A stretch of 64,000 nt of DNA from Planctomycetota bacterium (lineage in GTDB: Bacteria; Planctomycetota; B15-G4; SIAN01): positions 224,001-288,000 of the forward strand of contig JANNXA010000055.1 of NCBI GenBank assembly GCA_031409275.1, given 5' to 3'. The position numbers and the translations under genes are program-made. Below are positions 23,066 through 50,660 of this stretch, piece after piece (within the stretch, counting starts at the first letter, position 1; each line of letters starts with the position of its first letter). A model generated the notes under the pieces. It made no database searches and was not told where the DNA came from. It saw only the letters and a list, made by a program, of their open reading frames with translations.

Positions 23066-23076
23066 GGCGCGGATCC

Positions 23077-24144
23077 TCAGGCGGCGGGCGGAAGGGCGAG
23101 CAGCTCGGCGGCGGCCTGCAGGGCCATCTCCGCCGTCAACGAAGTCATGCAACGATGATCGAGGGGACAGATCTTCAAGTGGCAGGGACCGCATGGAACG
23201 TCGACCCGCAGCACTCGCGTCCGTTCGAGGTTGCTGGCCGTATGGCGCGGGTCGGTCGGTCCCATCAGCACGACACAGGCGGTGCCGACGGCAGTGGCGA
23301 TGTGACGTGGGCCCGTGTCGGTGGTGACCAGCACGCGCGCGCGCTCCAAGACCGGCTTCAGCAACTCGAGCGCGATCGGCGCGGACGAGGTATCGAGCGC
23401 CGCCGGCCCGGCGGCTTGCGCGATGCTGCGCGCGAGCGCCTCTTCACCCGGGCCGCACAGCACGACGGTGCGCAGTCGATGACGCTCGTGAAGGCCGCGG
23501 ATCGTCGCCGCGAACCCTTCAACCGTCCAGAACTTCGAGGCACCGAAGGCGGCGCCTGGATTGGCGGCCGCGAACGGCTCATCGGCGGCGAGGCCGAGGC
23601 GCGCCAACTCCGCAGCCGCGCGCGCGCGCTCGTCGTGGTCGATCACCAGGTGGAGCCGCTCGTCCTGCGCCGTCACCCCCACGGACGCCAACAGGTCGAG
23701 GTAGAGCCGCGTCATGGGCAGCGGGAGCCGCCGCTTCCCCTCCATCGCCTGGCGCGGCTTGACGTCGAGCAGGAAGCCTCGCTCCCGCGACCAGAAACCG
23801 ATGAGGCAGCGCGGACGGCTTGCTCGGCCGATCAAGGCCGACGACAGCGAGTGAGGCAGCAGCACGTGGAGGTCGACCGGGCCTTGCGCCGCGATCTCCC
23901 GCCCCGCGCGCCACCAGCCGAGCCATCCGCCGTGACGTCCCCCGCGCTCCAGCGCGAAGTAGCGATCGAAGTCCGGCGACCCACGAAGCAGGCGTGAGGC
24001 TGGCTTGGTGCCGACGACGGTGATCGTCGCGTGCGGTGCCGCGCGTCGAAGCGCACGCAGCGCGGGCGTGGCCATCACGACGTCGCCAACCCAGTTGGGT
24101 AGTCGGACGACGATCACTCGGCAGCTTTGATCGCGAGGATCCAC
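23077..24144 (-). CDS. waaF: LPS heptosyltransferase II (GT9)
   Basis: RLPNWVGDVVMATP, NPGAAFGASKFW, TTDTGPRHIA, CGPCHLKICPLDHRCM; start uncertain (GTG 24144 with GGAG SD, or 24174). Confidence 0.85.
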   Translation of the reverse strand: MDPRDQSCRVIVVRLPNWVGDVVMATPALRALRRAAPHATITVVGTKPASRLLRGSPDFDRYFALERGGRHGGWLGWWRAGREIAAQGPVDLHVLLPHSLSSALIGRASRPRCLIGFWSRERGFLLDVKPRQAMEGKRRLPLPMTRLYLDLLASVGVTAQDERLHLVIDHDERARAAAELARLGLAADEPFAAANPGAAFGASKFWTVEGFAATIRGLHERHRLRTVVLCGPGEEALARSIAQAAGPAALDTSSAPIALELLKPVLERARVLVTTDTGPRHIATAVGTACVVLMGPTDPRHTASNLERTRVLRVDVPCGPCHLKICPLDHRCMTSLTAEMALQAAAELLALPPAA

Positions 24145-24174
24145 TGGCGCTTCGCTCCGCACTTGACGGCGCAC

Positions 24175-24202
24175 AGTCTACGTGCGAAACGTCACGCGGT
24201 AA
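24175..24202 (-). promoter_or_regulatory. Possible internal sigma70-type promoter for waaF and downstream genes
   Basis: -10-like TAGACT at 24180-24175 with weak -35-like TTACCG 16 nt upstream. Confidence 0.3.
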
Positions 24203-24250
24203 CGAGCGAACCCGCCCAACCCCCTGGGCAGCTCTCTTCGGCCGGATCGA

Positions 24251-24814
24251 TCAGAAGCCGAATCCCGGCAGCAGTTGGGCCAGGATTGGCTGGACCTCGC
24301 CGACGGGCAGGCCCTGAGTCGCGGCGACGCCTGCCAGCAGCGCACGCGCCGCGGCAGGGTCGGCGAGCGTGGCCCGCAAGGCCGGACCGATCACCGGCCC
24401 CGACGCCGGACGGAAGCGACCGGTCCGCATGCGCTCCCGATTGCGCGTGAAGTCGGTCGAGACGAATCCTTCGCGCTGCTCCTGGAACTCCTCACGATGG
24501 CGGGCCATCTCGTTACGGCCTGCGGCGAGTTCGTCGTGGCGAAAGTGCTCCGTGCCGGCTTGCTCGAGCATCCGCTCGCGCTGAGCGGCAGGACTCGCGT
24601 CGTGATTGAACGGCAACCATCCGGCCACGGTGTCGATCGACTGGTCGAGCGCGCTTTGCGAGGCCTGTGAGGTCGCGTTCGCTCGATCGGGCACGTTCTC
24701 GCTGGGGCTTGCGCAGCCGCCCAAAGCGGCCGCGCCACCGACAAGGAGGAGGCGCCCGTGGGCGAGCAGGCGGTGCCGAAGCGACCCGAGCGCGCGGACG
24801 CAGGACTTTTCCAA
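24251..24814 (-). CDS. Hypothetical lipoprotein
   Basis: Hydrophobic stretch ending in lipobox-like LGGC; fits the gap between GT4 and waaF; start uncertain. Confidence 0.55.
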   Translation of the reverse strand: MEKSCVRALGSLRHRLLAHGRLLLVGGAAALGGCASPSENVPDRANATSQASQSALDQSIDTVAGWLPFNHDASPAAQRERMLEQAGTEHFRHDELAAGRNEMARHREEFQEQREGFVSTDFTRNRERMRTGRFRPASGPVIGPALRATLADPAAARALLAGVAATQGLPVGEVQPILAQLLPGFGF

Positions 24815-24902
24815 GCCAGGACTCCTCGGCGAGCAGCGCCTATCGCCGGGCGACGGCCGACTCTTCGACCGCCACGGCGACGAGCGCTACGGGCCGCGCG
24901 TT

Positions 24903-25952
24903 CTACCGACGAGGGGTGGTGGCGGCAACGCCGCGCCCCTCGGCCCGGTCTCCTCCGCGAAGGAGCGCGAGCAAATGCGGCCCCAACCGATCGACCCCGC
25001 GGGCGGCGATCACGTGGGCGCGTCGCGCTTGCGCCGCCGTCCGCTGGCCGGCCCCACCCGCGGCAGCCGCATCCCCCGCGAGGCTCCGCAGCGTCTCCAC
25101 AACGACTTCGACTCCGTCGGCGCACGGCGGCCAGTCGACGACGCCCCTGAACTCCGCGGCGAGCTCCGACTGCGCTCCGACGCGGCTCGCGACCGCAGGC
25201 AGCCCCGCCGCAAGGTAGCCGAGCAAGCGCGCGCCGCACTTGCCTCGCGTCCACGGATCGTCGGCGAGTGGTGCGAGTCCAAGCCACGCCTCGCGAAGGG
25301 CCGCCTCCTCGCCCGCCAGCGACCACGGACGAGCGTCGATCCCATCCCCACTCGTGACGCAGTCAGGCGCGCCGACGACGATCCAGCGAGCGTCGGGTAG
25401 CGCGGCGCGCACTCGCCCCCACGCCGCCGCGAACCGCGCCACGTAACGCCACGTCGAAGGTTGCCCGATCCAGAGCAGCGTCGGCGCCAACGCGCGCGCT
25501 CCCCAATCGCCGGCGGCCGCGTCGTCTGGCGGGACCGGCGTCGGCACGACCGCGGCAGCAACACCGAGCTCCCGCAACTCTCCCGCGAGCGATGCCGCTC
25601 CAGCGACGACCACATCGGCCCGTGAACAGAGCGCCCGAGCGCGCCACGCGCGGCCGCGCGACCGAAAGGGCGAAGCGTCGCGGCGCCACACCGCGTCGTC
25701 GAGGTCGACGACGAGTCGCCGTGCACGAGCGCGCAGCCACGCGCTCTCCCATGGTTGCGGCAACCGACGTTGGAGCCAGACGACGTCGTGGTCCGCCGCC
25801 CGCGCGAGTTGTCGCCAGCGCCGCGGCCCGCTCGGGACGAGCGCCTGCTGCTCGACCGCGACGCCCTGCGACGCAAGCCACGGCAAGAAACGCTCGACGC
25901 GCAACCGCGCGCTCGCGCCGCCGAGCGCCTCAACGAGCGCAAGCACTCTCAT
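24903..25952 (-). CDS. Glycosyltransferase family 4
   Basis: ASARLRV, WLQRRL, VVDLDDAVW, GLAPL.DDPWTRGKCG.RLLGYLAAGLPAVASRVG. Confidence 0.85.
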   Translation of the reverse strand: MRVLALVEALGGASARLRVERFLPWLASQGVAVEQQALVPSGPRRWRQLARAADHDVVWLQRRLPQPWESAWLRARARRLVVDLDDAVWRRDASPFRSRGRAWRARALCSRADVVVAGAASLAGELRELGVAAAVVPTPVPPDDAAAGDWGARALAPTLLWIGQPSTWRYVARFAAAWGRVRAALPDARWIVVGAPDCVTSGDGIDARPWSLAGEEAALREAWLGLAPLADDPWTRGKCGARLLGYLAAGLPAVASRVGAQSELAAEFRGVVDWPPCADGVEVVVETLRSLAGDAAAAGGAGQRTAAQARRAHVIAARGVDRLGPHLLALLRGGDRAEGRGVAATTPRR

Positions 25953-27094
25953 GGGGCGGCCCGCTTCGCGGCGGCTGCGTTGAGCAACGGCAACAGGGTG
26001 TCGATCTGATCGTCCCAACCGAAGCGTGCGCCCACCATGGCCGCGCGAGCTCGCGCTGCGTCCCCTTCCGCCAGCAGGCCGTCGATGGCGGCGGCGATCT
26101 CGGCGATCGATGACGGCGCGTCGACGACGCGCCCGCCCGCTGCCTCGACGTGCGGCGCCGCTCCGTTGCAAGCGGTCGTCACCACTGGTACGCCGGCCGC
26201 GAGCGCTTCGAGGCAGACGAGCGCACATGGGTCGAACCAGGTCGGATGGAGCAGCAGGTCCGCACGAGCCAGCCAAGGGTCGATCGACGTCGCGGCTCCC
26301 GCGAAATCGACCTGCGCCGCGATGCCGAGGCGCCGAGCCACCGCTTGCATCGGCGCGACGTGGCCGCGGCCCGCCACGACGAGTCGCGCCCCCCGCCGGT
26401 GCGCCTCACTGCGCGCGAAGGCGGCCAGGCCACTGCGTAGCCCCTTCAACTCGAAGTCGTGCGCCACGAAGAGCAATCTCGCACCGCGCGGCACCGCGCC
26501 GCGGTCGGAACATGCATCTCGTTGCGCCGCGAGCGCCGCAAGGCGTGCGACGTCGATCGCGGGTGGCACCACGACGATTCGATCGCGTGCGGCCGGGACG
26601 ATTGCCGACAGGTCCGCTCGCACCCGCTCCGACACCGCGATCGTCAAGAGGTCGCGGCGCTCCAGCAGCTCGCGTTCGACGGCGAGGAAGTAGCGGTGCC
26701 GCGCGCTGAACCGCTGCACGAACGCACGCAGCGTGCGGCGCCAACCCCAGCGATCGCTCGCACGCCGCGCGGCCGCGCTCGCTCCCCAACCACCGCCGTG
26801 TGGTTGATAGACATCGACCTGCGGCGCGTGCCGGATGCCGAGCAACGGCGCGCAACCATCCGCTCGCGCCATCGCGCAGGCGATTGCGGCGAAGCGCCGC
26901 TCGCGCGCGATGCGGCGGATGCCGCCGGCCGCGATCGTCACGCACGTCACTCCCGGCGGAGGTTCACCATGGCGCATGCAGTAGACGCGCACTGGATGGC
27001 CACGCGCGACCAGGCGCGCCGACAGCTCGAAGAGGTAGCGCTCCGCCCCACCGCGGGCCGCCGTGAAATCGTCGACGACGATCGCCAGTCGCAC
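25949..27094 (-). CDS. Glycosyltransferase family 4 (WaaG/RfaG-like LPS core transferase)
   Basis: RGGAERY, LFVAHDFELKGL, HPTWFDPCALVCLEALAAGVPVVTT. Confidence 0.87.
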   Translation of the reverse strand: MRLAIVVDDFTAARGGAERYLFELSARLVARGHPVRVYCMRHGEPPPGVTCVTIAAGGIRRIARERRFAAIACAMARADGCAPLLGIRHAPQVDVYQPHGGGWGASAAARRASDRWGWRRTLRAFVQRFSARHRYFLAVERELLERRDLLTIAVSERVRADLSAIVPAARDRIVVVPPAIDVARLAALAAQRDACSDRGAVPRGARLLFVAHDFELKGLRSGLAAFARSEAHRRGARLVVAGRGHVAPMQAVARRLGIAAQVDFAGAATSIDPWLARADLLLHPTWFDPCALVCLEALAAGVPVVTTACNGAAPHVEAAGGRVVDAPSSIAEIAAAIDGLLAEGDAARARAAMVGARFGWDDQIDTLLPLLNAAAAKRAAP

Positions 27095-27100
27095 GCGCGG

Positions 27101-28615
27101 CTACGCCTCAGGCGCGGCGCGGCCATGGCGGCGCTCGTGCGCGGCGATCCGCGCCGCCTTCGCAAGCGCGCGCCGTGCCAGCCGACGGGCGAACGCCCCA
27201 TCGCCGCGCGTGTAGGCCAGCAGCGCCCGCCACCGTTCGGCACGTGTCACGCCGGCCGCGCGTGCCGAGAACTCGAGCGCCGCGAGGTCCTTGGTGCGCC
27301 CGCGGCCGGGCAGACGCGCATGCCAGCTGACGCGCGACAGGTCGATCAGCACCAGCGAGCCGTCGACGCGCGGCAGGAAGTGGTCGAGATAGAGATCGCG
27401 GTGGAGGAACCCGGCCGCATGCAGTCGCCGCGCCATGCGCGCCGCAGCCAACAGCAACCGCCGCCGAGACGCTGCGCCAAGCGGCAGGCTCGGCAACTGC
27501 TCCCGCAACGTCACCCCCGGATCCACGCCCCGCGTCCACAGCACCGACGCGGCACCGTGCTGGCGAGCGACGGCCACGACTTGCGGCACCTCAATTCCGA
27601 GCGACGCCACCGCGCGCAGATGAACCCACTCCTGGAACGCCGGCGAGCGGCCGCGCTTCGGCGCCGCGTCGAATCGCTTGCCAAACCAGGTCGCCGTGGG
27701 CTCGCCTGGCGGCGCCGGCCAACGCAGGTTGGCGCGTCCGTCCCGAGTCCGCACCACGATCGAGTCCGCCGGCGCGAGCCATCTCGCCACCGAGCCGATC
27801 GGCGCCGCGCCATTCCACCGCGCAGCCACGTCGCCGGCGATGACGAGACGCTGCGTCGCATCGGTCCACTCGCGCACCCCCTCGGGGCGGGGCAGGCGCG
27901 CCTTCTCGAACAAACGACCGCGCGCGCGCCGAATCGACGCGGCGAGGCGGCGCCGCTTGAGGCGGTCGGGCTCGTAGGCCACCAGCATTCGCGCGCGCTC
28001 CGCCAACGAAAGTTGGCGCCGATCGATCGTCGCGAAGAGCGCGGCCCAATCGGCCGCCCGCGCCACGTCGGGGCAGCTCCGTCGCACCGATCGCACGCGC
28101 GCCTGCGCCAGGTCGATCCAGGCGATCGTGTCGCCGTCGATCCACGCATGCCAGGCGAAGAGCTGGCCGTGCGCGATCCCCGCCGCATGCAGCTTCGACA
28201 GCGCCATCGGGAGCGCGGCGAGGAGCTGCGCGCGCCGCGCGCGATCGACCCGCGGCAGGACCACGTCGAGCGGCTCGCCAGCGCGTTCCGCGTATGCCAG
28301 GAACGCCGCGCCATCGCGCCGCCGACCACGCGCCACGATGCGCGGCGCCGCGATCCCGCGCTCCACGCACGCCCGCGCGGCAGCCTCTTCGCGACGGAAC
28401 GTGCGGCGCTGCGCCGGCAGGAAGCTCTTCACGAAGAGGCGTGGACGCCCGAGTTCGGCGACGCACCACACGGCGCGCCCGTCGTTGGAACCGATGGCGC
28501 GGGCCGCTGCTGGCGGCCACGGCCACTCGGCAGCTGGATCCCACGCCGCCAGCAGCGCGGCCGCTTCGTCCGCGACCGCCAACCTCCAGCGCGAACGCGC
28601 CACCGGCTCAGCCAT
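27101..28615 (-). CDS. LPS kinase (WaaP/InaA/Kdo family), tandem two-domain protein
   Basis: C-terminal HAAGFLHRDLYLDHFL...LIDL...KDLAAL; N-terminal copy HAAGIAHGQLFAWH...WIDL. Confidence 0.8.
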   Translation of the reverse strand: MAEPVARSRWRLAVADEAAALLAAWDPAAEWPWPPAAARAIGSNDGRAVWCVAELGRPRLFVKSFLPAQRRTFRREEAAARACVERGIAAPRIVARGRRRDGAAFLAYAERAGEPLDVVLPRVDRARRAQLLAALPMALSKLHAAGIAHGQLFAWHAWIDGDTIAWIDLAQARVRSVRRSCPDVARAADWAALFATIDRRQLSLAERARMLVAYEPDRLKRRRLAASIRRARGRLFEKARLPRPEGVREWTDATQRLVIAGDVAARWNGAAPIGSVARWLAPADSIVVRTRDGRANLRWPAPPGEPTATWFGKRFDAAPKRGRSPAFQEWVHLRAVASLGIEVPQVVAVARQHGAASVLWTRGVDPGVTLREQLPSLPLGAASRRRLLLAAARMARRLHAAGFLHRDLYLDHFLPRVDGSLVLIDLSRVSWHARLPGRGRTKDLAALEFSARAAGVTRAERWRALLAYTRGDGAFARRLARRALAKAARIAAHERRHGRAAPEA

Positions 28616-29399
28616 GCGACTCCGACGCCGCTTTGCTCTTCTTGCCGACGGCCATCGGAGCCGCAACGCGCGCCGCGAGCGCCTTCGCGACGGCATCCTT
28701 CGCCGCTTTCGCGGGCCCCTTGTCGATCAGCTTCGCCGCGCTTTTCATCGGCACCGTCTTGGCCGCGCCCGGCTTCTGCAGCGGCGCGCGCGCGGCAGCC
28801 TTCGGCGCCGACGATTTCGCCTTCGCGTTCGCGGTCGCCACTGGCTTCGCGCCCTTCTTCGGCTTCGCCGCGGGGGGCGCAGCGACCTTGCGCTCGCGGC
28901 GCGGTGCACTCGGACCGCTCGCGCCGCGTTCTCCGCGGATCCGCGCCAGCAGGTCGATGGTCGAGTGGTCCTTCGGATCGCCCACCACGATCAGCTCGGC
29001 GCCGATCTCGGCGAGGACGTCGCGCTCCGGCAGCGTGTCGAGCGCGTAGTCGGTGCCCTTCGCCACGAGCTGCGGCCGCAGCTTGCGCAGCAGCGGGCCG
29101 CAGGTCTCTTCGGAGAAGATCGTGACGTAGGCGACGCCTTGGATGGCGGCGAGGATCTCGGCGCGCTCGGCCTCCGGCTGCACCGGACGATCGGGCCCCT
29201 TCAACTTGCGGATCGAGGCATCGCTGTTCAGCGCGACGACGAGGAAGTCGCCGCGCTTGGCCGCGTCGATGAGGCAGCGGATGTGTCCGACGTGCAGCAG
29301 GTCGAAGCAGCCGTTGGTGAAGACGACGCGCTTGCCACCGTCGCGAAGCCCGCGCAACCGCAGCGCGAGCTCGTCATGGTCGCGGATGATCATTCCCAT
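28608..29399 (-). CDS. Stand-alone heptose-1-phosphate adenylyltransferase (RfaE domain II/HldC) with Lys/Ala-rich tail
   Basis: VFTNGCFDLLHVGH, NSDASIRKLKGPDRP, KGTDY, followed by about 100 aa of low-complexity basic tail. Confidence 0.88.
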   Translation of the reverse strand: MGMIIRDHDELALRLRGLRDGGKRVVFTNGCFDLLHVGHIRCLIDAAKRGDFLVVALNSDASIRKLKGPDRPVQPEAERAEILAAIQGVAYVTIFSEETCGPLLRKLRPQLVAKGTDYALDTLPERDVLAEIGAELIVVGDPKDHSTIDLLARIRGERGASGPSAPRRERKVAAPPAAKPKKGAKPVATANAKAKSSAPKAAARAPLQKPGAAKTVPMKSAAKLIDKGPAKAAKDAVAKALAARVAAPMAVGKKSKAASESHG

Positions 29400-29463
29400 C
29401 GGACGCTCCCTCTCCCTGGTTCCGGCACGGCGCGACATCATGCCGCGGCGCCGTCGTTCCTGA

Positions 29464-30468
29464 TCACGCTTGCCCGAAAGGCGCCGGCGCGCGAGCGAGC
29501 ACGTCCCGCAGTTCCTGTTGCGAGCAGGTCGCCGCCCCGACCTTCATCACCACGACGCTGGCCGCGCAGTTGCTGATCCAGGCCGCCTCGCGCAGCGACG
29601 CGCCGGCGAGCCGCGCCGCGCTGAACGCCGCCACCACGGTGTCCCCGGCGCCCGACACGTCGACCACTTCGCCGGTCCCGACGATTCCGAACTCGAGCGG
29701 CTCCTGGCCCTGCGCGAAGAGCACCATGCCGTGCTTGCCGCGGGTCAGCAGCACCGCCCCGACGCCAAGCCGCTGCAACAGCGCCCGCCCGACCGCGAGG
29801 GCATCGCTGCCCGCCTCGATCTTGAGGCCCGCGGTCTCCTCGGCCTCCTCCTCGTTGGGGGTGATGACGGTGACGCCGGAGAACGCCGGCAGTCGATGGC
29901 GCGAATCGACGATGACCGGCTTGCTCTTCGCCTTGCGGCGCAACCAGTCGATCACGGCCGGCGTGAGCAGGTCGTAGTCGTAGTCGGAGACGAGGAAGGC
30001 TTGAACGCTGCGGTCGACCACTTCGAGACGCGCGATCGTCTCCTGCTCGCGCGGTCGCGCCTCGCCCCGGCGCGGCTCGCGGTCGATCCGGAAGAGCTGC
30101 TGCTTGGTGCGATGCGGATCGCCGGCGAGGATGCGGGTCTTGGTCACGGTCGGCCGTTCCGGGCGCCGCAGGATCGCGCCGGGATCGACACCGGCCGCCC
30201 CCAGCATCTCGATGACGCGGTCACCGGCCGAATCGCTGCCGACCTCCGCCACCATCTGCACGTGCACACCGAACGCCGCGAGGTTGCGAGCCGTGTTGGC
30301 CGCGCCGCCCGGGATCACCTCTTCGCGCTCGTAGTGGACCACCAGCACCGGTGCCTCGCGCGAGAGGCGCGCCGGCCGCGTGTACAGGTAGACGTCCGCG
30401 ATGACGTCGCCGACGACGCCGATCGTGAGCCCGTGCATCTTGTCGAGCCAGTGGGCGAGCGGGCTCAC
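29464..30468 (-). CDS. Stand-alone heptose-7-phosphate kinase (RfaE domain I/HldA, PfkB family)
   Basis: VVGDVIAD, RLSREAPV, PGGAANTA, TPNEEE, DVSGAGDTV. Confidence 0.88.
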   Translation of the reverse strand: MSPLAHWLDKMHGLTIGVVGDVIADVYLYTRPARLSREAPVLVVHYEREEVIPGGAANTARNLAAFGVHVQMVAEVGSDSAGDRVIEMLGAAGVDPGAILRRPERPTVTKTRILAGDPHRTKQQLFRIDREPRRGEARPREQETIARLEVVDRSVQAFLVSDYDYDLLTPAVIDWLRRKAKSKPVIVDSRHRLPAFSGVTVITPNEEEAEETAGLKIEAGSDALAVGRALLQRLGVGAVLLTRGKHGMVLFAQGQEPLEFGIVGTGEVVDVSGAGDTVVAAFSAARLAGASLREAAWISNCAASVVVMKVGAATCSQQELRDVLARAPAPFGQA

Positions 30469-31922
30469 GCGTCGGCTCCCTTGCCGTCACGGATACGTTC
30501 GATGAGGCCGGTCGTCGAGAAGCCGGCGACCAGCGGCGCAAGCACCACCACCCCGCCATGCGCCTCCACGAACGAACGGCCGACGACGCCCTTGTCGCGC
30601 CAGTCGGCACCCTTCACCAGCACGGCGGGCGCGATGGCGGGCACCACCTTCTCGGGCGTGTCCTCGCTGAACGGGAAGACGGCGTCGACACACGCGAACG
30701 CGGCCAGCATCCGCATCCGCTGCGCGAGCGCCTGCACCGGCCGCCCGGCGCCCTTCGCGCGGCGCACCGAGGCGTCGTCGTTGACGGCGACGAAGAGGAG
30801 GTCGCCCTGCGAGCGCGCATGCTCGAGCGACTGCACGTGGCCCGCATGCAGCAGATCGAAGCAGCCGTTGGTCAGCACGACGCGCCGCCCCTGCGCGGCG
30901 TAGCGATGGGAGAGCTCCGCCGCTCCGGCGCGCGTGAGCACCTTCGACGCGGTCGAGAAGCCATGGGCGAGCGCATTGGCGAGTTCCGCCGGCGTCACGC
31001 TCGCCGCGCCGAGTCGCTCGACGACGAGTCCAGCCGCCGCATTCGCGAGTTCGACGCCCTCCGACAGCGGCAGCTCCGCCGCGCGCGCGAGCGCCAGCAC
31101 GGCGATGACGGTGTCGCCGGCGCCGGTCACGTCGAAGACGGTGCGCGCGCGCGTCGGAGCATCGCCTTCGGCGCCATCCGCCGTGCGCCAGTAGATGCCG
31201 CGCGCACCGCGCGTGATGACCACCCAACGCAGCCCGATCCGCTTCAGCAACTGCTCCGCCGCGGCACGACAACCGTCGAGCGTCGACGTGTCGCATCCGG
31301 TCGCGGCCTCGGCTTCGGCGGCATTGGGAGTGATGCCGTGCGCGCCGCGATAGCGCTCGAAGTCGCGGCCTTTCGGATCGACCAGCACTTCGGCGCCGAG
31401 CGCACACGCCGCCTCGATCAACGGGCGCGTCAGCAGCCCCTTGGCATAGTCGGAGAGGATGACCGCGTCGACCTTGCCGCGCAGCTTCAGCAGCTGCGCG
31501 ACCATCCGCTGCTCGAGCGCGCCGTGGATCGCGGACGCCTCCTCGCGATCGACCCGCAGCATCTGCTGATGGCGCGCCAGGATGCGGGTCTTCTCGATGG
31601 TCGGGCGCGCCGGATCGACGCGGATCCCGCTGGCGGAGACGCCCGCCGCAACCACCTGTTCCTTCAGCAGGCGGCCCGCCGCGTCGCTGCCGCAGACGCC
31701 GACCAGCAGCGGATGACCGCGCAAGCTCGCGACGTTGGCGGCGACGTTCGCCGCGCCGCCCGCGCGCACCTCTTCGCCGCGGACATGCACGACCGGAACC
31801 GGCGCCTCGGGCGAGATGCGCGGGACGTCGCCGCGCACGTAGCGATCGAGGATGAGATCCCCCACCACCAGCACGCGGCGCCGCGCGAGGCGCGCCACCA
31901 GCTCATCGCCGCCCTCGCTCAT
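30465..31922 (-). CDS. hldE: Bifunctional heptose kinase/adenylyltransferase HldE
   Basis: VGDLILDRY...RISPEAPVPV, SDYAKG, DVTGAGDT and TNGCFDLLHAGH...LVKGADW. Confidence 0.92.
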   Translation of the reverse strand: MSEGGDELVARLARRRVLVVGDLILDRYVRGDVPRISPEAPVPVVHVRGEEVRAGGAANVAANVASLRGHPLLVGVCGSDAAGRLLKEQVVAAGVSASGIRVDPARPTIEKTRILARHQQMLRVDREEASAIHGALEQRMVAQLLKLRGKVDAVILSDYAKGLLTRPLIEAACALGAEVLVDPKGRDFERYRGAHGITPNAAEAEAATGCDTSTLDGCRAAAEQLLKRIGLRWVVITRGARGIYWRTADGAEGDAPTRARTVFDVTGAGDTVIAVLALARAAELPLSEGVELANAAAGLVVERLGAASVTPAELANALAHGFSTASKVLTRAGAAELSHRYAAQGRRVVLTNGCFDLLHAGHVQSLEHARSQGDLLFVAVNDDASVRRAKGAGRPVQALAQRMRMLAAFACVDAVFPFSEDTPEKVVPAIAPAVLVKGADWRDKGVVGRSFVEAHGGVVVLAPLVAGFSTTGLIERIRDGKGADA

Positions 31923-32860
31923 GCGCGCCACTCCGCCGGCGGATCGATCAGCATCCAGCGCAACAACGGGAGCAGGATCTCGTGGTGACCGCGCAGGTCG
32001 AACGCCGGACCACCGGCCGGTCGATCGAGCACGTTCATGCGCGGCCGGTAGTGCGGCAACTGGTCGAGGTTCGCCGTCGTGAAGCGGTCGACCGTCGCAC
32101 CGAGGTTGCGCGCGATGGCGAGCGCCTTGAGGAAGACCTCGGGCAGCGTCACCGCCGAGCCGACGTTCACATAGGCGCCGCCCTGAAGCTTCGTGACCTG
32201 TTCGGCGAAACGGCGGAAGTCGGCGAGGCTCGTCGCGCCGATGGCGGCGCCATCCGCGGTCGCGTGCATGTGCACGATGTCGGCGCCGAGCGTGACATGG
32301 ACGGTGCCCGGCGTCCCGCGCTGCACGCACTGCCAGAGCACCGAAAGCTCGCGATGCGGCAGCGCTTCGCGATCGATGGCGCGACCCACCGCCTCGCCGA
32401 ATCCGATGCCCGCTTCAGCGCCGCGCCGCACGGCGCCGTTCAGGAACTCGGCGGTGTCGCGCGCCATGCCGAAGCTGCCGTCCTTGAGCGCGCTGCCCAC
32501 ATCCTCCGACGTCGCGCCGATCATCGCCAGCTCGACATCGTGGATCGCGCCGGCGCCGTTGGTCGCCAGACCGTTCAGCAGCCCGCGATCGAGCAGATCG
32601 ATCAGCAACGGTGACAGTCCCACCTTCAGCACATGCGCGCCGATCCCGAAGTAGATCGGAGCTCCGGCAGCGCGCGCGTGAAGCAGCGCCTTCGCCAGCC
32701 CCTTCAAGGCCTTCGCCCCGAGCACGTCGGGCAAGGCGCCGAGCAACGCGGCGACGGCACCGGGCGGCGGCACATCGACGCGCGCGAACCCGTCGCGCGA
32801 GACGAGGCTTGGACGGTCCGCGAGCGCGTAGGTCTTGAGGCGATCGAGCGGAAGAGTCAT
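31919..32860 (-). CDS. Conserved uncharacterised protein, deoxyhypusine-synthase-like fold (GSU2086-type)
   Basis: LKTYALADRPSLV, GAHVLKVGLSP, NGAGAIHDVE, GATSEDV...GSFGMA, GADIVHMH, GSAVTLPEVFLKAL, HYRP, GHHEILLPLL; family recognised from memory. Confidence 0.7.
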   Translation of the reverse strand: MTLPLDRLKTYALADRPSLVSRDGFARVDVPPPGAVAALLGALPDVLGAKALKGLAKALLHARAAGAPIYFGIGAHVLKVGLSPLLIDLLDRGLLNGLATNGAGAIHDVELAMIGATSEDVGSALKDGSFGMARDTAEFLNGAVRRGAEAGIGFGEAVGRAIDREALPHRELSVLWQCVQRGTPGTVHVTLGADIVHMHATADGAAIGATSLADFRRFAEQVTKLQGGAYVNVGSAVTLPEVFLKALAIARNLGATVDRFTTANLDQLPHYRPRMNVLDRPAGGPAFDLRGHHEILLPLLRWMLIDPPAEWRA

Positions 32861-33813
32861 GGAAGCGGGCGAGCATAGCGCTCGCGCCAGCGCGGATCGG
32901 GCTCCGTGCCGCCCTTCTTCCAGCGTCGATGGAACCAGAGGTACTGCTGCGGATCGGCCCGGATCGCCGCTTCGAGACGCCGATGGAACAGGTCGGTGAT
33001 GCGCCAGGCATCCTCTTCGTCCGACAACGTCGGATCGACGGCCAGCGGCTCCTCGAAGCGCGCCTCGACTCGATGCGGGCCGGGGACGCGCGCGAACCAC
33101 GGGACGATCGGCGCACCGAAGCGCCGCGACAGCGCGGCCGCGAGCGTGAAGGTCGACGCCTCGGCATGGAAGAAGGGCACGCGCACGCCGCGACTGCCGG
33201 CGTGCTGATCGATCAGCAATCCGACGGTCGCTCCGCTGCGCAACGCGCGCGCGAGCGGCAGCCCGGCACCATCCTTCGCCACGAAACGCTGCCCATAGCG
33301 GCTGCGCAGCGCCATCAGCTCGGCGTCGAGCAGCCGGTTCTTCATGGGGCGCGCCACGACCACGCTGCGCAGTCCGAAGAGCGGCGCGAGCAGGCCGAAC
33401 AACTCCCAGTTGCCGAAATGGCCGGTCAACAGGATCACGCCGCGACCGAGCGCGAGCGCCGCATCGAGGTGATGGCGATCGCGCAGCTCGAGCATGGCCG
33501 ACGCGCCATTCCGCTCGACCAGGCGCGGCGCGAGGATCAGCTCGAGCGGGATGCGCATGAAGTGGGAGAAGCAGGCGCGCGACCACTCGCGAATCTGCGG
33601 ATCGTCGGGCGCGCGACCCAGCGCCGCAGCCATCTGCTCGCGAGCGAGGCGCGCGCGCGACGGCAACACGAGCCGCATCAACGTTCCGAGCGCGTCCGCG
33701 AGCCCGATCGACGCGCCGTCGGGAAGCCGGCGCGCCACGGCCAGGACGCCGCGCACGGCGACGGTCTCGATGCGATCGCGCAGCGTCGGCTTCGCGTCAG
33801 GCGCTCGCGGCAT
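32857..33813 (-). CDS. Lipid A biosynthesis acyltransferase (LpxL/HtrB family)
   Basis: LLTGHFGNWE, GLLIDQH, VPFF, IRADPQQYLWFHRRWK. Confidence 0.9.
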   Translation of the reverse strand: MPRAPDAKPTLRDRIETVAVRGVLAVARRLPDGASIGLADALGTLMRLVLPSRARLAREQMAAALGRAPDDPQIREWSRACFSHFMRIPLELILAPRLVERNGASAMLELRDRHHLDAALALGRGVILLTGHFGNWELFGLLAPLFGLRSVVVARPMKNRLLDAELMALRSRYGQRFVAKDGAGLPLARALRSGATVGLLIDQHAGSRGVRVPFFHAEASTFTLAAALSRRFGAPIVPWFARVPGPHRVEARFEEPLAVDPTLSDEEDAWRITDLFHRRLEAAIRADPQQYLWFHRRWKKGGTEPDPRWRERYARPLP

Positions 33814-36800
33814 GCGTGCGCGCCTTCTCCTGCTCGAAGCGCATCGCCATCGGACGCGAGATGCCGTTGCCTTCCATTGTCACGCCGTAGAGCGTGTCGG
33901 CGACCGCCATCGTGCGCTTGTGGTGGGTGACGATCAGGAACTGCGTGCTGCCGAGGAAATCACGCACCATCAGCGAGAAGCGCTCCACGTTCGCCTCGTC
34001 GAGCGCCGCATCGACTTCGTCGAGCACGCAGAACGGCGACGGCCGGGTCGAGAAGAGCCCGAATAGGAGCGCCGCGGCGGTCAGCGTGCGCTCGCCGCCG
34101 GAGAGCATCGCGATCGAACGCGGGTCCTTGCCGGGCGGAGCGGCGACGATGTCGACGCCCATCTCGGCCGGATCGTCGGTCTCGACCAGCGTGAGGTCGG
34201 CGCGGCCACCGCCGAAGAGGCGACGGAACAACGCCTTGAAGTGCTCACGCACCGCGTCGTAGGTCGCGCTGAAGCGCACTTCGCACTCGCGATCGATTTC
34301 CTCGATCATCTCCTTCAGCTTCTGCTTGGCCTGCGCGAGGTCCTGCTTCTGCTGGTGGAGGAAGGTCGCGCGCCCCTCGACGGCCTGGAGCTCGTCGATC
34401 GCCACGACGTTCACCGGTCCCAACCGCGCGAGGGTGCCGCGCAGCTTCTCCGCCTCGTTCTCCATCACCGGCAGCGCCGTACCGAACAGGTCGAGGTCGA
34501 TCAGCACCTCGATCGGCGCGGGTGCCGGCGGCGCCGCCGACGCGAGCGCCGCCGCCTCGTCGCTTCCCGCCTGCACGAGCTGCGGAGCAGCCGGGGTCGC
34601 CGACGCCGCCGGCTCGACCGTCGCGGCGACCGCCAGGTCGTTCGCGGCAAGCGGCGCGGGGAGCAGCACGACGTTCGCGCGTCCCTCCTCCACTCGCACC
34701 ACCTGGCGCACCAGCTCGTCCGGCTCGATCAGCAGCTCTTCGCGAACCTTCTGCTCGAGGAGGTTGCTGTGCAGCCGCTGCTCCTGCTCGCGCAATTCGA
34801 GGCTCTGCGCGTGGCGGCTGTCGGTTTCGACCCCGCCGCGCAGCTCATGAACGCGGCGCCGGATCTCGCCGGTCTGCGCCTTGTGCTGCTCGAGCGCCCC
34901 TTGGCGCGCCGCGAGCTCCTGCGACTGCTCCTCGACCATGGCCAGCAGGCGCGACCGCTCGGCACCGGCCGCCGCATGCGCTTCACCGAGCCGCGCCTCT
35001 TCTTCGCCGAGCTCGACCAGTCGCCGATCGGCGCGCTTCAACTCCTCGTGGCGCTCGCGCAACCGCATCCGGGCCGCTTCGCGCGCGTCGTGCGACGCTT
35101 TCGCGCGCTCGGCGAGCTTCACCACCTCGATGTCGAGCGCGAGCGCGATCTCCTCGGCTTGCCGACGCTGGTCGGCGCCGCCGTGCAGCGCCTCGGCGGC
35201 CTGCGCCCGTTGCGCGCGCGCCTCGAGCCGCTTGCCATCGAGCGCGAGGCGGCGCGCCGACAACTCGCGCGCATCGCTCTTCAGCGAATTGCTGCGCCGT
35301 TCGAGATCGACGAGCTCGCGCGCATCGAGGCCGAGCTCCTCGCGCATGAGGTCGAGGCGGTTGGAATGGCCCTGCAGCTCCTTCTGCGCCACCCCTTCGA
35401 GCTGCGACGCTTCGGCGCGCCGACGCGCGCGCACCTCGCGGTCCCGCTCGCGCAGCGCGATCTCCTGCTGCTTCGATTCGAGTTCGGCGGTCCAGCCGGC
35501 GCATTCGCGCTCGCCGCGCGCGACCGACTGCTGGAGACGCTCGCGTTCGTTGCGCCGCGTGATGAGGCCGAGGAACTCGCCACGACCGCGGCTCACGCTC
35601 TCGAACGAGGAGAGCATCACCTCGCCCTCGGCGGAGACGAGCGCGCGCCCCTCCGGCGGCGAGCAAAGCGCCATCGGCACATCGGTCGGCAGCAGGTCGA
35701 AGCGGCCGAGCAGCGCGGCGAGCAGCTCGCCATCCTTCGCGTCGAACGTGCTGGCGCGCAGCAGCTCGCTCCATGCCAGCGCCGCGCCGCCTTCCGAGGC
35801 GCGCGTCGGGATCTCGGCCCGCGACAGGATGCGGATCCGTTCGAGCCCTTCGCGGCGCAGCACCTTCAAGACGCGATCGGCCGCGGCGCGGTCGCGGACG
35901 ACCAGCGCCTCGGAGAGCGGGCCGAGCGCCGCTTCGAGGACGCGCGCCGTCTCGGCCGGAGCGGTGACGAGGTCGGCGACGATCCCCTCGATGCCGGCGA
36001 GCTCGGGGTCGCCTTGCGCGGCCCGTTCGAGCAGTCCGCGCACCACCTCGCTCACCCCTTCGTGGCGAGCGATCGCATCCTCGAGCATGAGCAGCTTGGA
36101 GCGCTCGCTCTCGACCTTCGATTCGCGATGGCGCAGGCGGTCGGAGAGCGCCTGACGATCGGAGTAGAGGCGACCGAGCACGTCGTCGTCCGCCGACAGC
36201 TCCGACTCCAGCGCGAAGCGATCGGAGGTGAGGCCGTCGACGCGACGTCGCATCGTCCGCACCGTGAGGGCGGTGTCGGCGATCGAACGCGAGCGTTCGG
36301 CGCTGCGCGCTTCGAGCTTGCGACGCGACTGCGATAGCGCCTTCCAGTGCGACTCGACGTCGGCGAGCTCGCTGCGCGCGCGCTGCTCCGCTTCGACGAG
36401 ATCGAGCTCGTCGCGCTCGAGTTCGACGAGCTGCCGCTCGAGCTCCTGCGCTTCGCGCGCCAGTTCCTGCACGCGCCGTTGCGCGAGGTGCTTCTCCTCG
36501 CGCCGATCAGCCTCCTGCTCGGCGACCTCGGCCACCCGCGCCTCCGCCTCGCGTTCGAGCCGCGCGAGCTGCTCGATCTGATCGGAGATCTCCTCGCGCC
36601 GCGCGCCGCCTTCGTCCCGTTCGCGGCCATTCTCTTGGCTGCGTTCGGCGAGCTCGGAGAGGCGGGCCGCGAGGTGCTCGCTGCGCGCGCGCCGTTCCGC
36701 CAACGTGCTGCGCAGATCGGAGATCAGCGCGGCCTGGCCCGCGAGCTCTTCCTCGCGACTCGACAGCGACTCCTCCGCGACCGAGAGCTCGGCGCGGGCG

Positions 36801-37564
36801 GCCACCACCTGCGCGGTCACCGTCTCCCGTTCGCCGCCCAGCTCCGCGAGCAACGCCGAGAGCTCGCGCCGCTTGCGCGCGAAGAGGACGGCGAGCACGC
36901 AGCGCAGTCGATCGCGCTTCTCGACGTAGGTGCGGGCGCGCCCCGCCTGCACCTTGAGCGAGCGCACCTGCCGCTCGAGCTCGCCGAGCAGGTCGGTGGC
37001 GCGCTGGATGTCCTGATCGGTGCGATCGAGGCGGCGCACCGCTTCCTTGCGGCGCACGCGGTAGCGGCTGGTCCCGGCGGCCTCCTCGAGCAGCACGCGC
37101 CGCTCGGCGGGACTCGCGCGCAGGATCGCGTCGATCTGCCCCTGCGCCATGAACGAGTAGCCGCCGACGCCGAGCCCGGTGTCGAGGAAGAGATCCTTGA
37201 TCTCCTTCAGCTTCGCGGGCGCGTCGTTGATGCGGTACTCGCCGTCGCCTTCCTTGCTCAAGCGGCGGGTCACCTTCACTTCCGCGGACGGATGCGGCAG
37301 GCGTCCCTTGCTGTTGTCGAACACCAGCGAGACTTCGGCCCCATCGACGCTCGCCGAATCACCGCGGTAGACGACGTCGGCCATGCCGGAGCTGCGCAGC
37401 CGCGTCGGCCGCGTCTCGCCGAGCGCCCATTGGATGGCGTCGACGAGGTTGCTCTTGCCGCAGCCGTTGGGCCCGACGATCGCGGTGATGCCGTCGCCGA
37501 TCAGGAACTCGGTCCGATTGGCGAACGACTTGAAGCCGTACATCTCGACCTTGGTGAGCTTCAT
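33797..37564 (-). CDS. smc: Chromosome segregation protein SMC
   Basis: GFKSFA, GPNGCGKSN, central hinge, coiled coils, LSGGE, VLDEVDAALDEAN, VTH. Confidence 0.95.
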   Translation of the reverse strand: MKLTKVEMYGFKSFANRTEFLIGDGITAIVGPNGCGKSNLVDAIQWALGETRPTRLRSSGMADVVYRGDSASVDGAEVSLVFDNSKGRLPHPSAEVKVTRRLSKEGDGEYRINDAPAKLKEIKDLFLDTGLGVGGYSFMAQGQIDAILRASPAERRVLLEEAAGTSRYRVRRKEAVRRLDRTDQDIQRATDLLGELERQVRSLKVQAGRARTYVEKRDRLRCVLAVLFARKRRELSALLAELGGERETVTAQVVAARAELSVAEESLSSREEELAGQAALISDLRSTLAERRARSEHLAARLSELAERSQENGRERDEGGARREEISDQIEQLARLEREAEARVAEVAEQEADRREEKHLAQRRVQELAREAQELERQLVELERDELDLVEAEQRARSELADVESHWKALSQSRRKLEARSAERSRSIADTALTVRTMRRRVDGLTSDRFALESELSADDDVLGRLYSDRQALSDRLRHRESKVESERSKLLMLEDAIARHEGVSEVVRGLLERAAQGDPELAGIEGIVADLVTAPAETARVLEAALGPLSEALVVRDRAAADRVLKVLRREGLERIRILSRAEIPTRASEGGAALAWSELLRASTFDAKDGELLAALLGRFDLLPTDVPMALCSPPEGRALVSAEGEVMLSSFESVSRGRGEFLGLITRRNERERLQQSVARGERECAGWTAELESKQQEIALRERDREVRARRRAEASQLEGVAQKELQGHSNRLDLMREELGLDARELVDLERRSNSLKSDARELSARRLALDGKRLEARAQRAQAAEALHGGADQRRQAEEIALALDIEVVKLAERAKASHDAREAARMRLRERHEELKRADRRLVELGEEEARLGEAHAAAGAERSRLLAMVEEQSQELAARQGALEQHKAQTGEIRRRVHELRGGVETDSRHAQSLELREQEQRLHSNLLEQKVREELLIEPDELVRQVVRVEEGRANVVLLPAPLAANDLAVAATVEPAASATPAAPQLVQAGSDEAAALASAAPPAPAPIEVLIDLDLFGTALPVMENEAEKLRGTLARLGPVNVVAIDELQAVEGRATFLHQQKQDLAQAKQKLKEMIEEIDRECEVRFSATYDAVREHFKALFRRLFGGGRADLTLVETDDPAEMGVDIVAAPPGKDPRSIAMLSGGERTLTAAALLFGLFSTRPSPFCVLDEVDAALDEANVERFSLMVRDFLGSTQFLIVTHHKRTMAVADTLYGVTMEGNGISRPMAMRFEQEKARTHAASA

Positions 37565-39501
37565 GAGGTGGGCGATCCTTCGGGCGGTCGAACGACGCGG
37601 AGCGAGGGGCCGGCGACGGTGGCGGCGAGCGCCTGGCCGTGCGGCTGCGGGTCGAAGGCATAGCGAAAGGCGGCGCCGTCGTGGGCGATGCCCAGCACGT
37701 CGCAACCGCGCGGGAAACGGAGGAAGTCGGCGCGACCGAAACGCGCCTCGGCATCGGGGAACGACTCTTCGCGCAATTCGAAGCGCGCCGCCGCGGCCCC
37801 GCCCGCCGGCAACGCCGACCGCAGGCGATCGAGCAGCCGCCCGCGCAACGCGAGCGCCGACTCGCTCTCCTGCGGGTCGCGCTCCGTGATGGCGCGCACC
37901 GCGGCGTCGACCCCCACCGGGACGAGCACGATCTGGTAGGCGTGGCTCCCGGGCAGTTCGAGCGGCAGGTCGCGCGCGATCTCGCGCAACAGGTCGCGCA
38001 GTCGCCGCAGGAACCCGACCCCCTGCTCATCGCGCTGCAGCAGGACGCGCAGGAGGTTCGCGCCGGCGGCGACCGCCCGCTCGACGATCTCGGGCAGCGC
38101 GATCAACAGTTCACGCTCACCGCGGCGGCCGGCGGAGAGCGCCAGTCTCGCGACGTTCATGCCGATGCGCGCGCCGACCACGCGCACCGTCGGGCCGGAG
38201 AGCGGCGCATGGGCGACGTCGGCGGCGCCGAGCGCGAGCGCCGACTGCAACGGCGCCGCGAAACGCAGCAGCTGCGATTCCTCTTCGCCGGCGTCGAGCA
38301 GCAGGCGCACGCGCGGCACGCGCAGGTGCGGCGACACCGCCACCGCCTCTTCGAGCAGCTGCTTCACGAAGGCGTGCATCCGCTCGCGAACGGCACCCGG
38401 CGCGCCACCGCGCCGAAACAGGCTGGTCGCGGAGGAGGGTGGCAGATCGGCGCCGACGCCCAGCACGCGCCGCAGCGGCTGCGTGCGCGAGCCGCGGCCA
38501 GGCGCATCGGCCAGCGCCAACAGCAGCGTGCGCGCCGCATCGGCCGCACGCGCGTCGTCGGCAAACGCCGGCGCGAGCGCGCGCTCGACGTGGTGGAGTT
38601 CGAGCGGCCCGTGCAGCGCGGGCTCGAGGCCATGCACGAGGTGGAGCAGGCTGGCGAGTGCGCCCGGCCACGCGGCGCGCCGCACTTCGCCGAAGTCGAG
38701 CGTGGCCTGCAGCACCTGTCCCGGCGCCTGCAATCCGTCGACGTGCAGGGCCCCTTCCAGGTGCGCGGTCGCGACCGCCGGCTCGAGCAGGCGACACAGC
38801 GAGTAGCGGCGCAGGAGTTCTCCGCCGAGCCGGACTTCCGGACGTTCGCTGTCGACCCCGCGCTGGAATGCGATCGCCTCGACTTCGCTCGCCGGCAGGC
38901 CGAGGCCCTGGTCGCGCGCCAGTCGATCGGCGCAACCGCGCGCCACCAGCTCCGCCGCCACCAACTGGCGCAGCGTGGCCGCCGCGATGACATCGCCGCC
39001 GAGCGCGCGCGCCTGCCGTTCGACGGCGGCGGCGACGGCGGTCGCATCGGCCCGCTTCATGCCACCGTCGACGAGCAGCGCGGTCGCGATCTTCGCCGCA
39101 TCGAACGGATCGAGGCATTCGCGCCCGAGCGAAGCGACCTGCAGCGTGGCGTCGCGCGCGCCGCCAGGTGCCGCGACCAGCGGTTCATTGGCGTGCAACA
39201 AGATGTAGGAACGGGCCACCTCGTGATGGCCGGTCTCCATCAGCACGCGCTCGGTGGTCTCGCGCAGCGCACGAGTCGATGCGGCGACGCTCCCGTGCTC
39301 CTCGTCGAGCACCAGCGCGACCAGCGCCGCGAGCTCCTCGGCCAGCAGCAGCTCGCCCTGTCCGACCGCAACGGCGGCGCGGTGGATCGATTGCGCGAGC
39401 CGCTGCGCGTTGAACGGTTCGCGGCTGCCGTCGCGGCGCACGATCTCGCGGATCGGCGGCCGGCCCGACGGCGTGAAGCAGTCGTCGCCGTGATCAGCCA
39501 C
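37561..39501 (-). CDS. Double ATP-cone protein with degenerate, C-terminally truncated class III RNR (NrdD)-like barrel
   Basis: [20 protein letters not shown] and second cone [18 protein letters not shown]...[31 protein letters not shown]; no glycyl-radical motif. Confidence 0.7.
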
Positions 39502-40006
39502 GGTGGCCGCCTTCGCCGCGCGGGTCGTTGCGGCGCGGCGCCTTCGGATCGGGGCGGTCGTTCAGGAGCGGGCCGAGCTCCTCGAGGAACTGCTCGACGT
39601 CCTTGAACTCGCGGTACACCGAGGCGAAGCGAACGTAGGCCACCGGATCGAGCTTGCGCAGCTCGTTCATCACGAGGTTGCCGACGAACTGCGACGACAC
39701 GTCCTTGTCGAACATCTCGTTCAGCTGCGCCTCGATGCGACGGCACAGCTCCTCGATCTGCTCCTGCGACACCGGCCGCTTCTCGCACGCCTTCAGGATT
39801 CCGGCGCGCAGCTTGGCGCGATCGAAGGGGACGCGCGTGCCGTCCTTCTTGATGACGCGCAGTTCGAGTTCTTCGATGGTCTCGTAGGTCGTGAAGCGGC
39901 GGCCGCAATCGAGGCACTCGCGGCGGCGACGGATCACCGCCGCGTCGCCCGAGGTGCGCGAGTCGATGACCTTGTCGTTGTTCGCCTTGCAGTACGGACA
40001 CCGCAT
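39494..40006 (-). CDS. nrdR: Transcriptional repressor NrdR
   Basis: MRCPYC...VIDSR...[21 protein letters not shown] cone [19 protein letters not shown]. Confidence 0.97.
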
Positions 40007-40044
40007 CGCGGCGCGATCCCCCTCAGGCCTGCGAGAGCCGCGGG

Positions 40045-40073
40045 ATTGTCGCGCCCCAGGGATGGGGTGTCAA
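40045..40073 (-). promoter_or_regulatory. Sigma70-type promoter of the nrdR operon
   Basis: Minus strand reads TTGACA-17 nt-GACAAT, 38 nt upstream of the nrdR ATG. Confidence 0.75.
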
Positions 40074-40099
40074 AGTTCCTGACCGACGAGATATGGGGT
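40053..40099 (-). promoter_or_regulatory. Tandem NrdR-box-like sites
   Basis: ACCCCATATCTCGTCG (40099-40084) and ACCCCATCCCTGGGGC (40068-40053) are 31 bp apart and resemble consensus acaCwAtATaTwGtgt; the second lies inside the promoter spacer. Confidence 0.7.
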
Positions 40100-40122
40100 T
40101 GCGGGCGCGCACCGCGCCGCAA

Positions 40123-43613: not shown

Positions 43614-43638
43614 GCCGCCCCTCCGTTTCAGGCTCCGC

Positions 43639-48706: not shown

Positions 48707-48828
48707 GGCGCGATTGTACGGAGGCCAGTTCCCCGGTGATCGGCGCCAAATTGTCAACGCGGTCGTGGGCCGATCGCAGCCTCGACGACAAAGTGGCGCA
48801 CCCTGCTCGCTGAATGCGCCGTTAGCCG

Positions 48829-48844
48829 AGGCACTCGGTTTGCC
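48829..48844 (+). promoter_or_regulatory. Putative sigma54 (-24/-12) promoter upstream of groEL1
   Basis: AGGCACTCGGTTTGCC fits GG-N10-GC with GGCAC-N5-TTGC, about 180 nt upstream of the groEL ATG. Confidence 0.45.
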
Positions 48845-49022
48845 TTCGGCCCCTCGGCTCGACAGCGCCCGCCGCGGGCGCCGCGTTCGATGCGACGTCG
48901 CCGCTCGGCGAGGCGATCGACCCGACCTGGGCTCGGTCGCAGAGTCGGACCGCACCCTTGACCTGCTGATTGGACCAGCTGAGTTCACCCGCTGGCGCAA
49001 AGACGAAGGAGAGCACTCGGAA

Positions 49023-50660
<1,638 letters not shown>

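Follow-up and report, generated by a model that had tools for sequence, protein, structure and literature searches.

A predicted catalytically dead class III ribonucleotide reductase homologue retained between nrdR and smc in Planctomycetota

The window analysed here is a stretch of 64,000 nucleotides from a Planctomycetota bacterium (contig JANNXA010000055.1, positions 224,001 to 288,000), whose closest named relatives are Planctomycetota metagenome-assembled genomes and whose genome has a completeness of 93% and a guanine-cytosine content of 69%. Between nrdR and smc it carries a middle gene, here called X, whose product appears to be a class III ribonucleotide reductase (RNR) homologue that has lost every catalytic landmark and is nevertheless under purifying selection. 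We read the locus, with a probability of about 0.7, as the remnant of an nrdR-nrdD-nrdG-smc block that is likely repressed by NrdR and in which the dead NrdD has been retained by selection, most probably as a non-enzymatic ATP-cone partner that would tune NrdR. NrdR loaded with dATP/ATP would bind two boxes lying across the −35 element and the promoter spacer, the bound NrdR would repress the promoter of nrdR, X and smc, and X would act on NrdR through its ATP cones. Labels beginning with L, G, C and f denote loci, genomes, contigs and families, G000 being the genome of the window. The features on which this reading rests are as follows.

40084..40099, minus strand: NrdR box 1, upstream of the −35 element (ACCCCATATCTCGTCG; 10.8 bits with the relatives-trained matrix)
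40045..40073, minus strand: predicted sigma70-type promoter, TTGACA-17-GACAAT (sequence match)
40053..40068, minus strand: NrdR box 2, in the promoter spacer (ACCCCATCCCTGGGGC; 8.5 bits with the relatives-trained matrix)
39494..40006, minus strand: nrdR, Zn ribbon plus ATP cone (TIGR00244, 205 bits, cut-off 124.65)
37561..39501, minus strand: X, predicted catalytically dead class III RNR homologue of 646 amino acids (relatives' profiles and predicted fold), with cone 1 at residues ~19–102, cone 2 at ~118–190 and an eroded RNR barrel at ~200–620
33797..37564, minus strand: smc, condensin (TIGR02168, 809 bits, over cut-off)

Fold and lost catalytic landmarks of X

When the window protein was searched alone against Pfam and NCBIfam, the ATP cone was the sole match and NrdD was not returned. 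The NRDD profile matched 11 of 39 aligned relatives weakly, and the profile built from this 39-row family was collinear with the NrdD of S. thermophilus (9d3x). The predicted model had a predicted local distance difference test (pLDDT) score of 85.7; the top 21 rows of a VIA search with it were all class III RNRs (4con_A, Z 22.0, root-mean-square deviation 4.4, 403 aligned), and class III RNRs also came first in Foldseek (9d3x_A, E 3.9e-13). On its modelled fold, X is a class III RNR homologue with the RNR/glycyl-radical barrel and two ATP cones. The initial annotation of the window, made from its letters alone, had called X a pseudo-NrdD, and both the match to class III RNRs and the loss of the catalytic landmarks bear this out.

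The landmarks were taken from the literature (finger-loop cysteine motif, PMC9669993; NxN and HxHD triphosphate motif, PMC11226230). Aligned to intact planctomycete NrdD, X has lost the beta-A cysteine (RVYCSSH aligns to QVLQATL), the finger-loop cysteines (MGCR/xCCR; SACCRL in intact NrdD), the NxN flap, ESPAES and YYTNS; HIHDL reads LHVDGL, and the protein stops short of the C-terminal Zn site and the glycyl-radical loop, with RIVGY and the Zn cysteines lost. The barrel of the X family has no conserved cysteine column. Judged from the alignment, X is catalytically dead. Its closest counterpart is the two-ATP-cone NrdD of the double-cysteine SACCRL type found in anaerobic Planctomycetota (e.g., L115), with which it shares the place after nrdR, the domain order, the fold and a remnant AHxxGxxH motif, whereas it lacks that enzyme's beta-A and finger cysteines, NxN flap, Zn site and glycyl loop, is 160 amino acids shorter, lies on long branches and has no NrdG that we could find.

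No NrdD match or glycyl domain was found elsewhere in the 93%-complete window genome, and a radical domain supplied to X in trans was rejected because no such domain was found there. The search of this genome for the NrdG activase gave just weak radical S-adenosylmethionine (SAM) matches on contig C40 (E ≥ 3e-8, 26–37% identity), none convincing. NrdD scored over the cut-off in 0 of 41 genomes of the order.

Despite the lost catalysis, X is under purifying selection. The ratio of nonsynonymous to synonymous substitution rates (dN/dS) was 0.21, 0.21 and 0.29 against three relatives and 0.18–0.27 for the barrel alone, with 0.14–0.25 for smc. X was found in 34 of 35 genomes of the class, and over 54 aligned rows several residues were near invariant (E161 in 53, L185 in 52, H247 in 52, R188 in 50 and R587 in 49), while barrel identity across families was 22–28%. 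The cones keep 39–48% identity to intact NrdD, the barrel 16–24%; the cone-2 residues are near invariant over the 54 rows, and cone 1 of the window protein keeps RRDG at the KRDG roof. It is likely that X is kept by selection as a non-enzymatic regulator.

Predicted NrdR operators at nrdR and elsewhere

The TTGACA-17-GACAAT promoter proposed in the initial annotation was recovered as the sole sigma70-like site in 22500–42000, with 10 of 12 matches and 0.3 such sites expected in shuffles. The proposal that it carries two NrdR-box-like sites 31 bp apart also stood. An NrdR operator, as described in PMC13584703, consists of two 16-bp boxes with a 15–16 bp linker and conserved C4, A6, A8, T9, T11 and G13, and the 31 bp offset of box 2 from box 1 is consistent with this rule. 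Box 1 has all six conserved positions; box 2, which begins on the final base of the −35 element and covers 15 of the 17 spacer bases, keeps four (C4, A6, T11 and G13), has CC in place of AT at its center and has just three A/T between C4 and G13. The box center is said in the same source to tolerate change, CG centers being accepted in vitro.

A box matrix, built from an initial consensus, was trained on 54 boxes upstream of the RNR genes of relatives, with the window's own genome excluded, and was used to scan the genome for box pairs 31 or 32 bp apart (about 11.2 million position-spacing pairs), p-values being obtained from first-order Markov resampling with 200 draws. The genome's own nrdJ operator ranked first (24.0 bits), a site on C40 second (23.0 bits) and the nrdR site third (19.3 bits). 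Of 28 order members, 25 had a best 31/32-bp pair with p ≤ 0.01 upstream of nrdR, and so did 17 of the 26 degenerate loci from the rest of the phylum. Moreover, a box stood straight after a −35-like motif (TTGAC, TTGAT, TGGAA or GGGAA) of the predicted promoter in 27 of the 28 order members. Because off-phase spacings score comparably to the window pair, the case for the operator rests on this conservation, and NrdR very probably binds and represses here. A lone 14.2-bit NrdR-like box without an in-phase partner lies inside the coding sequence of X (39196–39211) and is probably due to chance.

As the boxes are real and conserved, NrdR autorepression at the nrdR operator, which the initial annotation had anticipated, is likely. 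Control of this type has been described before: according to PMC9110341, NrdR "often" regulates the nrdR gene itself, and it was shown bound to the nrdRJ promoter. In Streptomyces coelicolor, the nrdRJ operon likewise has nrdR as its first gene and a promoter overlain by two 16-bp boxes at a 31 bp offset (PMC9110341, PMC13584703), but in the window nrdR is followed by a dead class III homologue and then smc, and the working NrdJ is encoded elsewhere with an operator of its own. The available text of PMC12051234 holds nothing on nrdR-proximal sites. Given that the dead copies group with an nrdR-linked two-cone NrdD, the nrdR operator most plausibly descends from that of an ancestral nrdR-nrdD-nrdG operon and was retained after the death of the enzyme.

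The sole RNR found in the window genome is a class II NrdJ, located elsewhere and without an ATP-cone match. Its operator has canonical tandem NrdR boxes at 32 bp (L200, about 3700–3747; G000:C9:68199–68246). The in-phase tandem boxes on C40 (L199, about 2751–2797; G000:C40:108750–108796; 23.0 bits) precede a Minf_1886 (TIGR04138) gene located downstream of holB-ricT, and this operator type was kept in 19 of 30 relatives (f1 6/6, f4 13/13, f2 0/7, f5 0/4); the Minf_1886 gene is likely a second non-RNR target of NrdR. Two further in-phase pairs were seen in the genome, on C34 and C22. In the available text of bioRxiv 10.1101/2025.03.28.645925, the box pairs described in E. coli and P. aeruginosa are at RNR operons only, and single NrdR boxes are cited at topA in Pseudomonas, which was not responsive, and at dnaA in Shewanella. 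Those cases resemble the present one in placing replication or chromosome genes under NrdR-type sites, whereas here the sites are in-phase pairs, at an operon without an active RNR and at Minf_1886.

The erosion series and the nrdR-smc block

In a phylum sample of 201 genomes, NRDD gave matches in 91, many of them weak, and a broader profile at 1e-8 gave 159, the weakest of which include cones of other RNRs. Loci were chosen by profile score and are a non-random set in which kin are not independent; the automated neighbor count followed a strict rule that misses some visible smc and nrdR neighbors, so that its figures are lower bounds. Among 31 fetched loci with finger cysteines, that is, an intact two-cone nrdD, nrdR lay upstream in 28, nrdG was present in 22 and smc fell within the short flanks in 3. 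None of the 58 fetched loci without finger cysteines had RxxGY; at least 50 of them lay after nrdR, at least 33 were followed by smc and 9 retained a nrdG-like open reading frame (ORF). Protein length falls in steps from ~810 to 600–750, ~500, ~380 and finally 180–209 amino acids, where only cones are left. Stand-alone one- or two-cone proteins of ~180–209 amino acids directly follow nrdR at L236:1324–1890, L239:1507–2136 and L241:1453–1998, and by sequence they form the end point of the erosion series.

Among the best 150 profile matches in 1.84 billion representatives, 137 of the 141 long ones lacked both radical motifs and none had both, and 2 of 10 looked-up clusters were named as reductases ("ribonucleoside-triphosphate reductase"). 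In phylogenetic trees, the dead copies grouped with two-cone NrdD of the nrdR-linked type. In one tree, 22 of 25 degenerate rows fell together with a Shimodaira-Hasegawa-like approximate likelihood ratio test (SH-aLRT) support of 99, and in another, under a mixture model, 11 of 14 did so (SH-aLRT 95); the degenerate rows are long branches, and three fall apart from the rest. The 93-row FastTree excluded L160, L160b, L171 and L041. Five nrdR-linked NrdDs (L127, L194, L195, L196 and L197) have intact finger and Zn cysteines and no glycyl motif in the same ORF, and may represent enzymes that are split or that are at an early step of inactivation.

Within the order, X and smc overlap or lie at most 24 bp apart in all 27 complete loci, and in f46 a single-cone remnant still stands between nrdR and smc. 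The gene order nrdR-X-smc holds in the order and in much of the phylum; the further extension to lpxL considered in the initial annotation is confined to this order, where alone the lipopolysaccharide (LPS) genes follow smc. Because smc adjoins X across the whole order and stands downstream of it widely in the phylum, smc likely shares the nrdR promoter with X, and read-through from this promoter into smc is probable. Radical-SAM ORFs resembling nrdG were seen between the dead nrdD and smc in f37 and f57 (L159:4847–5992, L161, L162, L164, L167 and L188). An ancestral planctomycete block of nrdR-nrdD-nrdG-smc, of which the window locus is a remnant, is the best explanation of these arrangements.

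Possible partners of X and the reach of the operon

Several observations weigh against the main reading of the locus. Off-phase control spacings in the genome scan peaked at 16.4–21.9 bits, so the nrdR pair is just moderately strong, and five f5 genomes have a strong spacer box alone, without a good partner. In cone 1 of the window protein, the positions that correspond to Tyr83, Arg87 and Arg91 in P. copri hold L, E and A (contact residues from PMC11226230, mapped via a profile alignment to 9d3x NrdD); of the 12 rows at the grade of this family, 1 keeps the Arg87 equivalent, compared with 36 of 42 others, counted by eye; outside the window's family all three are mostly retained. Inner cones are usually non-functional, according to Burnim et al. 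(PMC9669993). In all five genomes checked from four other families, no X-type gene stood beside nrdR or smc, and the X-type gene has moved in L163 and L190. Finally, adjacency to nrdR is ancestral and therefore does not show interaction.

A non-enzymatic partner of NrdR remains our preferred reading of X. A cone-to-cone contact with NrdR is the leading guess for how it would work, and a tentative one, favored because the cones are conserved longest and because oligomers of NrdR and of RNRs make contact through ATP cones (PMC9110341, PMC11226230). The lost cone-1 contacts weigh against a simple nucleotide-sensor role; as the nucleotide site looks eroded, interaction in the window's family would rely on the cone surfaces. 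A comparable degenerate site occurs in RNRs with tandem ATP cones and a dead inner cone, such as P. aeruginosa NrdA (PMC9669993), but there the enzyme is active, whereas here the enzyme appears dead and the cones are its most conserved part.

X might instead work with SMC as an adaptor, loader or nucleotide-state switch, the operon coupling deoxynucleoside triphosphate (dNTP) status to condensin. The tight X/smc junctions of the order, the downstream smc in at least 33 of the 58 degenerate loci and the f46 remnant would all suit such a role. On the other side, smc adjoins intact nrdD too (3 of 31 short loci), and the cone-only forms of f66 and f87 have no smc in the ~1.4 kb examined. Both scpA and scpB are present in the window genome, on other contigs, so no condensin subunit is missing, and X as a stand-in for one was ruled out. 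We regard a role with SMC as unlikely.

That X provides the cone-less NrdJ with an activity-control site in trans is less probable still. NrdR and X are the only two ATP-cone matches in the genome, its sole RNR found has no cone and intact NrdD is absent from all 41 order genomes, yet the nucleotide contacts of cone 1 are eroded in the window's family and X has no genomic link to nrdJ. To our knowledge, there is no precedent for such a site supplied in trans to a class II NrdJ. About equally improbable is that the ORF is functionless in itself, a slowly decaying spacer carrying translation from nrdR into smc. The fast divergence of the barrel and the stepwise shortening of the protein would fit decay, as would its complete loss from some lineages, a frame-split copy (L160) and another that looks split (L041/G012), but the low dN/dS of the barrel, its confidently predicted fold, the near-invariant residues and the presence of X in 34 of 35 class genomes argue against it.

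The initial annotation had further suggested that NrdR could link dNTP status to condensin and lipid A/core synthesis, as a possible replication-segregation-envelope coupling. The genes downstream of smc are as follows.

32857..33813, minus strand: lipid A acyltransferase, LpxL-like (PF03279)
31919..32860, minus strand: GSU2086 family protein (NF052581, over cut-off)
30465..31922, minus strand: HldE-like bifunctional heptose kinase/adenylyltransferase (NF008454, 493 bits, cut-off 521; TIGR02198, over cut-off)
29464..30468, minus strand: PfkB/RfaE domain I-like kinase (profile matches)
28608..29393, start possibly 29441, minus strand: RfaE domain II-like nucleotidyltransferase (profile matches)
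27101..28615, minus strand: Kdo/WaaP-family LPS kinase (PF06293)
25949..27094, minus strand: GT4 glycosyltransferase (profile match)
24903..25952, minus strand: GT4-like glycosyltransferase (weak matches below cut-off)
23077..24174, minus strand: GT9 heptosyltransferase, in the co-oriented LPS run carried on beyond 24903 (PF01075)

The gene names given earlier hold in general, except that the "DHS-like" gene is better called GSU2086 family, and the coordinates of the overlaps and near-abutments from nrdR to the GT4 genes were confirmed: −8 bp for nrdR/X, −4 for X/smc (ATGA), −17 for smc/lpxL, −4 each for lpxL/GSU2086, GSU2086/hldE and hldE/kinase, +70 (or +22 from an earlier ATG) for kinase/nucleotidyltransferase, −8 for nucleotidyltransferase/Kdo-WaaP kinase, +6 for kinase/GT4 and −4 for GT4/GT4. 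No other promoter-like or minus-strand terminator-like site was found in 22.5–42 kb of the window. These tight overlaps from nrdR through the kinase would favor an envelope operon, as would the LPS genes 3ʹ of smc in 19 of the 20 order loci, the remaining one stopping at a contig edge. Against it, a gap of 285–738 bp separates smc from the LPS genes in 16 order loci (families f2, f4 and f5), out of 19 whose smc end could be read; the tight smc/lpxL junction occurs only in the window's family, L081 and L093. Outside the order, 23 loci had at least 1.5 kb of sequence beyond smc, and none of them showed lpxL, GSU2086 or hldE there (counted by eye). Evolved coupling of the LPS genes to the NrdR operon is, on this gene order, not supported and improbable, and the LPS genes are probably passengers; read-through into them is plausible, at slightly less than even chances, in the window's family only.

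The gap holds a structured, near-invariant non-coding element of ~85 nt (L080:8977–9111, L083:9044–9178, L084:9557–9691, L092:10834–10968 and 12 more loci), likely an undescribed small RNA. Its stem, 7 of whose 19 pairs show compensatory changes, surrounds an invariant C/U-rich loop; in 15 of the 16 loci the element occupies the opposite strand, and in several a terminator-like hairpin faces smc. A search of Rfam returned no match at the gathering score in seven loci and two chance-level matches in one. A 20-mer of the element occurred in 26 of 42 class genomes at one to three copies each, with diverged copies in G009, and outside the order in one genome of the phylum sample, with a mismatch; neither a pattern nor a covariance model found the element in the window's genome, and it was not found in the window's family.

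Some neighboring features were also recorded. The RfaE-II-like protein has a long Lys/Ala-rich, histone-like C-terminal tail (28608–28950), likewise in L007, and at 21014–24814 the co-oriented run extends with a small uncharacterized ORF, the GT9 heptosyltransferase and an FHA-GAF-sigma54 activator. In the window's family, two mutually similar SGNH/TPR-type membrane proteins (40123–45489) lie between yidC and nrdR, while in many other families yidC directly abuts nrdR; no terminator-like site was seen ahead of the nrdR promoter in the window. Two tandem groEL-type genes, then dnaJ and grpE, occupy 48363–54701 on the plus strand.

The weakest alternative, an active, split or unusual class III RNR with its radical domain in trans, could appeal to the split-looking intact NrdDs of the phylum and to the reductase label in some databases, but is hardly credible given the missing finger-loop, beta-A and conserved barrel cysteines, the failure to find a glycyl domain or NrdG homologue in the 93%-complete genome and the absence of both motifs from nearly all long top-ranked homologues.

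In the literature covered, which included few subscription papers, we came across no account of a conserved family of catalytically dead class III RNRs or of an nrdR-nrdD-smc block. A broader view, which we hold as speculative, is that X is a phylum-wide pseudoenzyme adaptor with a double ATP cone, co-expressed with NrdR and SMC, which may plug into NrdR or condensin and tie dNTP status to chromosome organization, within a tandem-operator NrdR regulon that reaches beyond RNRs to smc and the Minf_1886 gene specific to the Planctomycetes-Verrucomicrobia-Chlamydiae (PVC) group. In-phase NrdR box pairs at non-RNR genes depart from the picture available for E. coli and P. aeruginosa. The dead NrdD family occurs widely among under-cultured Planctomycetota, and some of its members are wrongly annotated as active reductases, so that inferences of anaerobic dNTP synthesis are inflated. 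The passage from a full enzyme to a cone-only protein provides a clean natural record of an enzyme turning into a pseudoenzyme.

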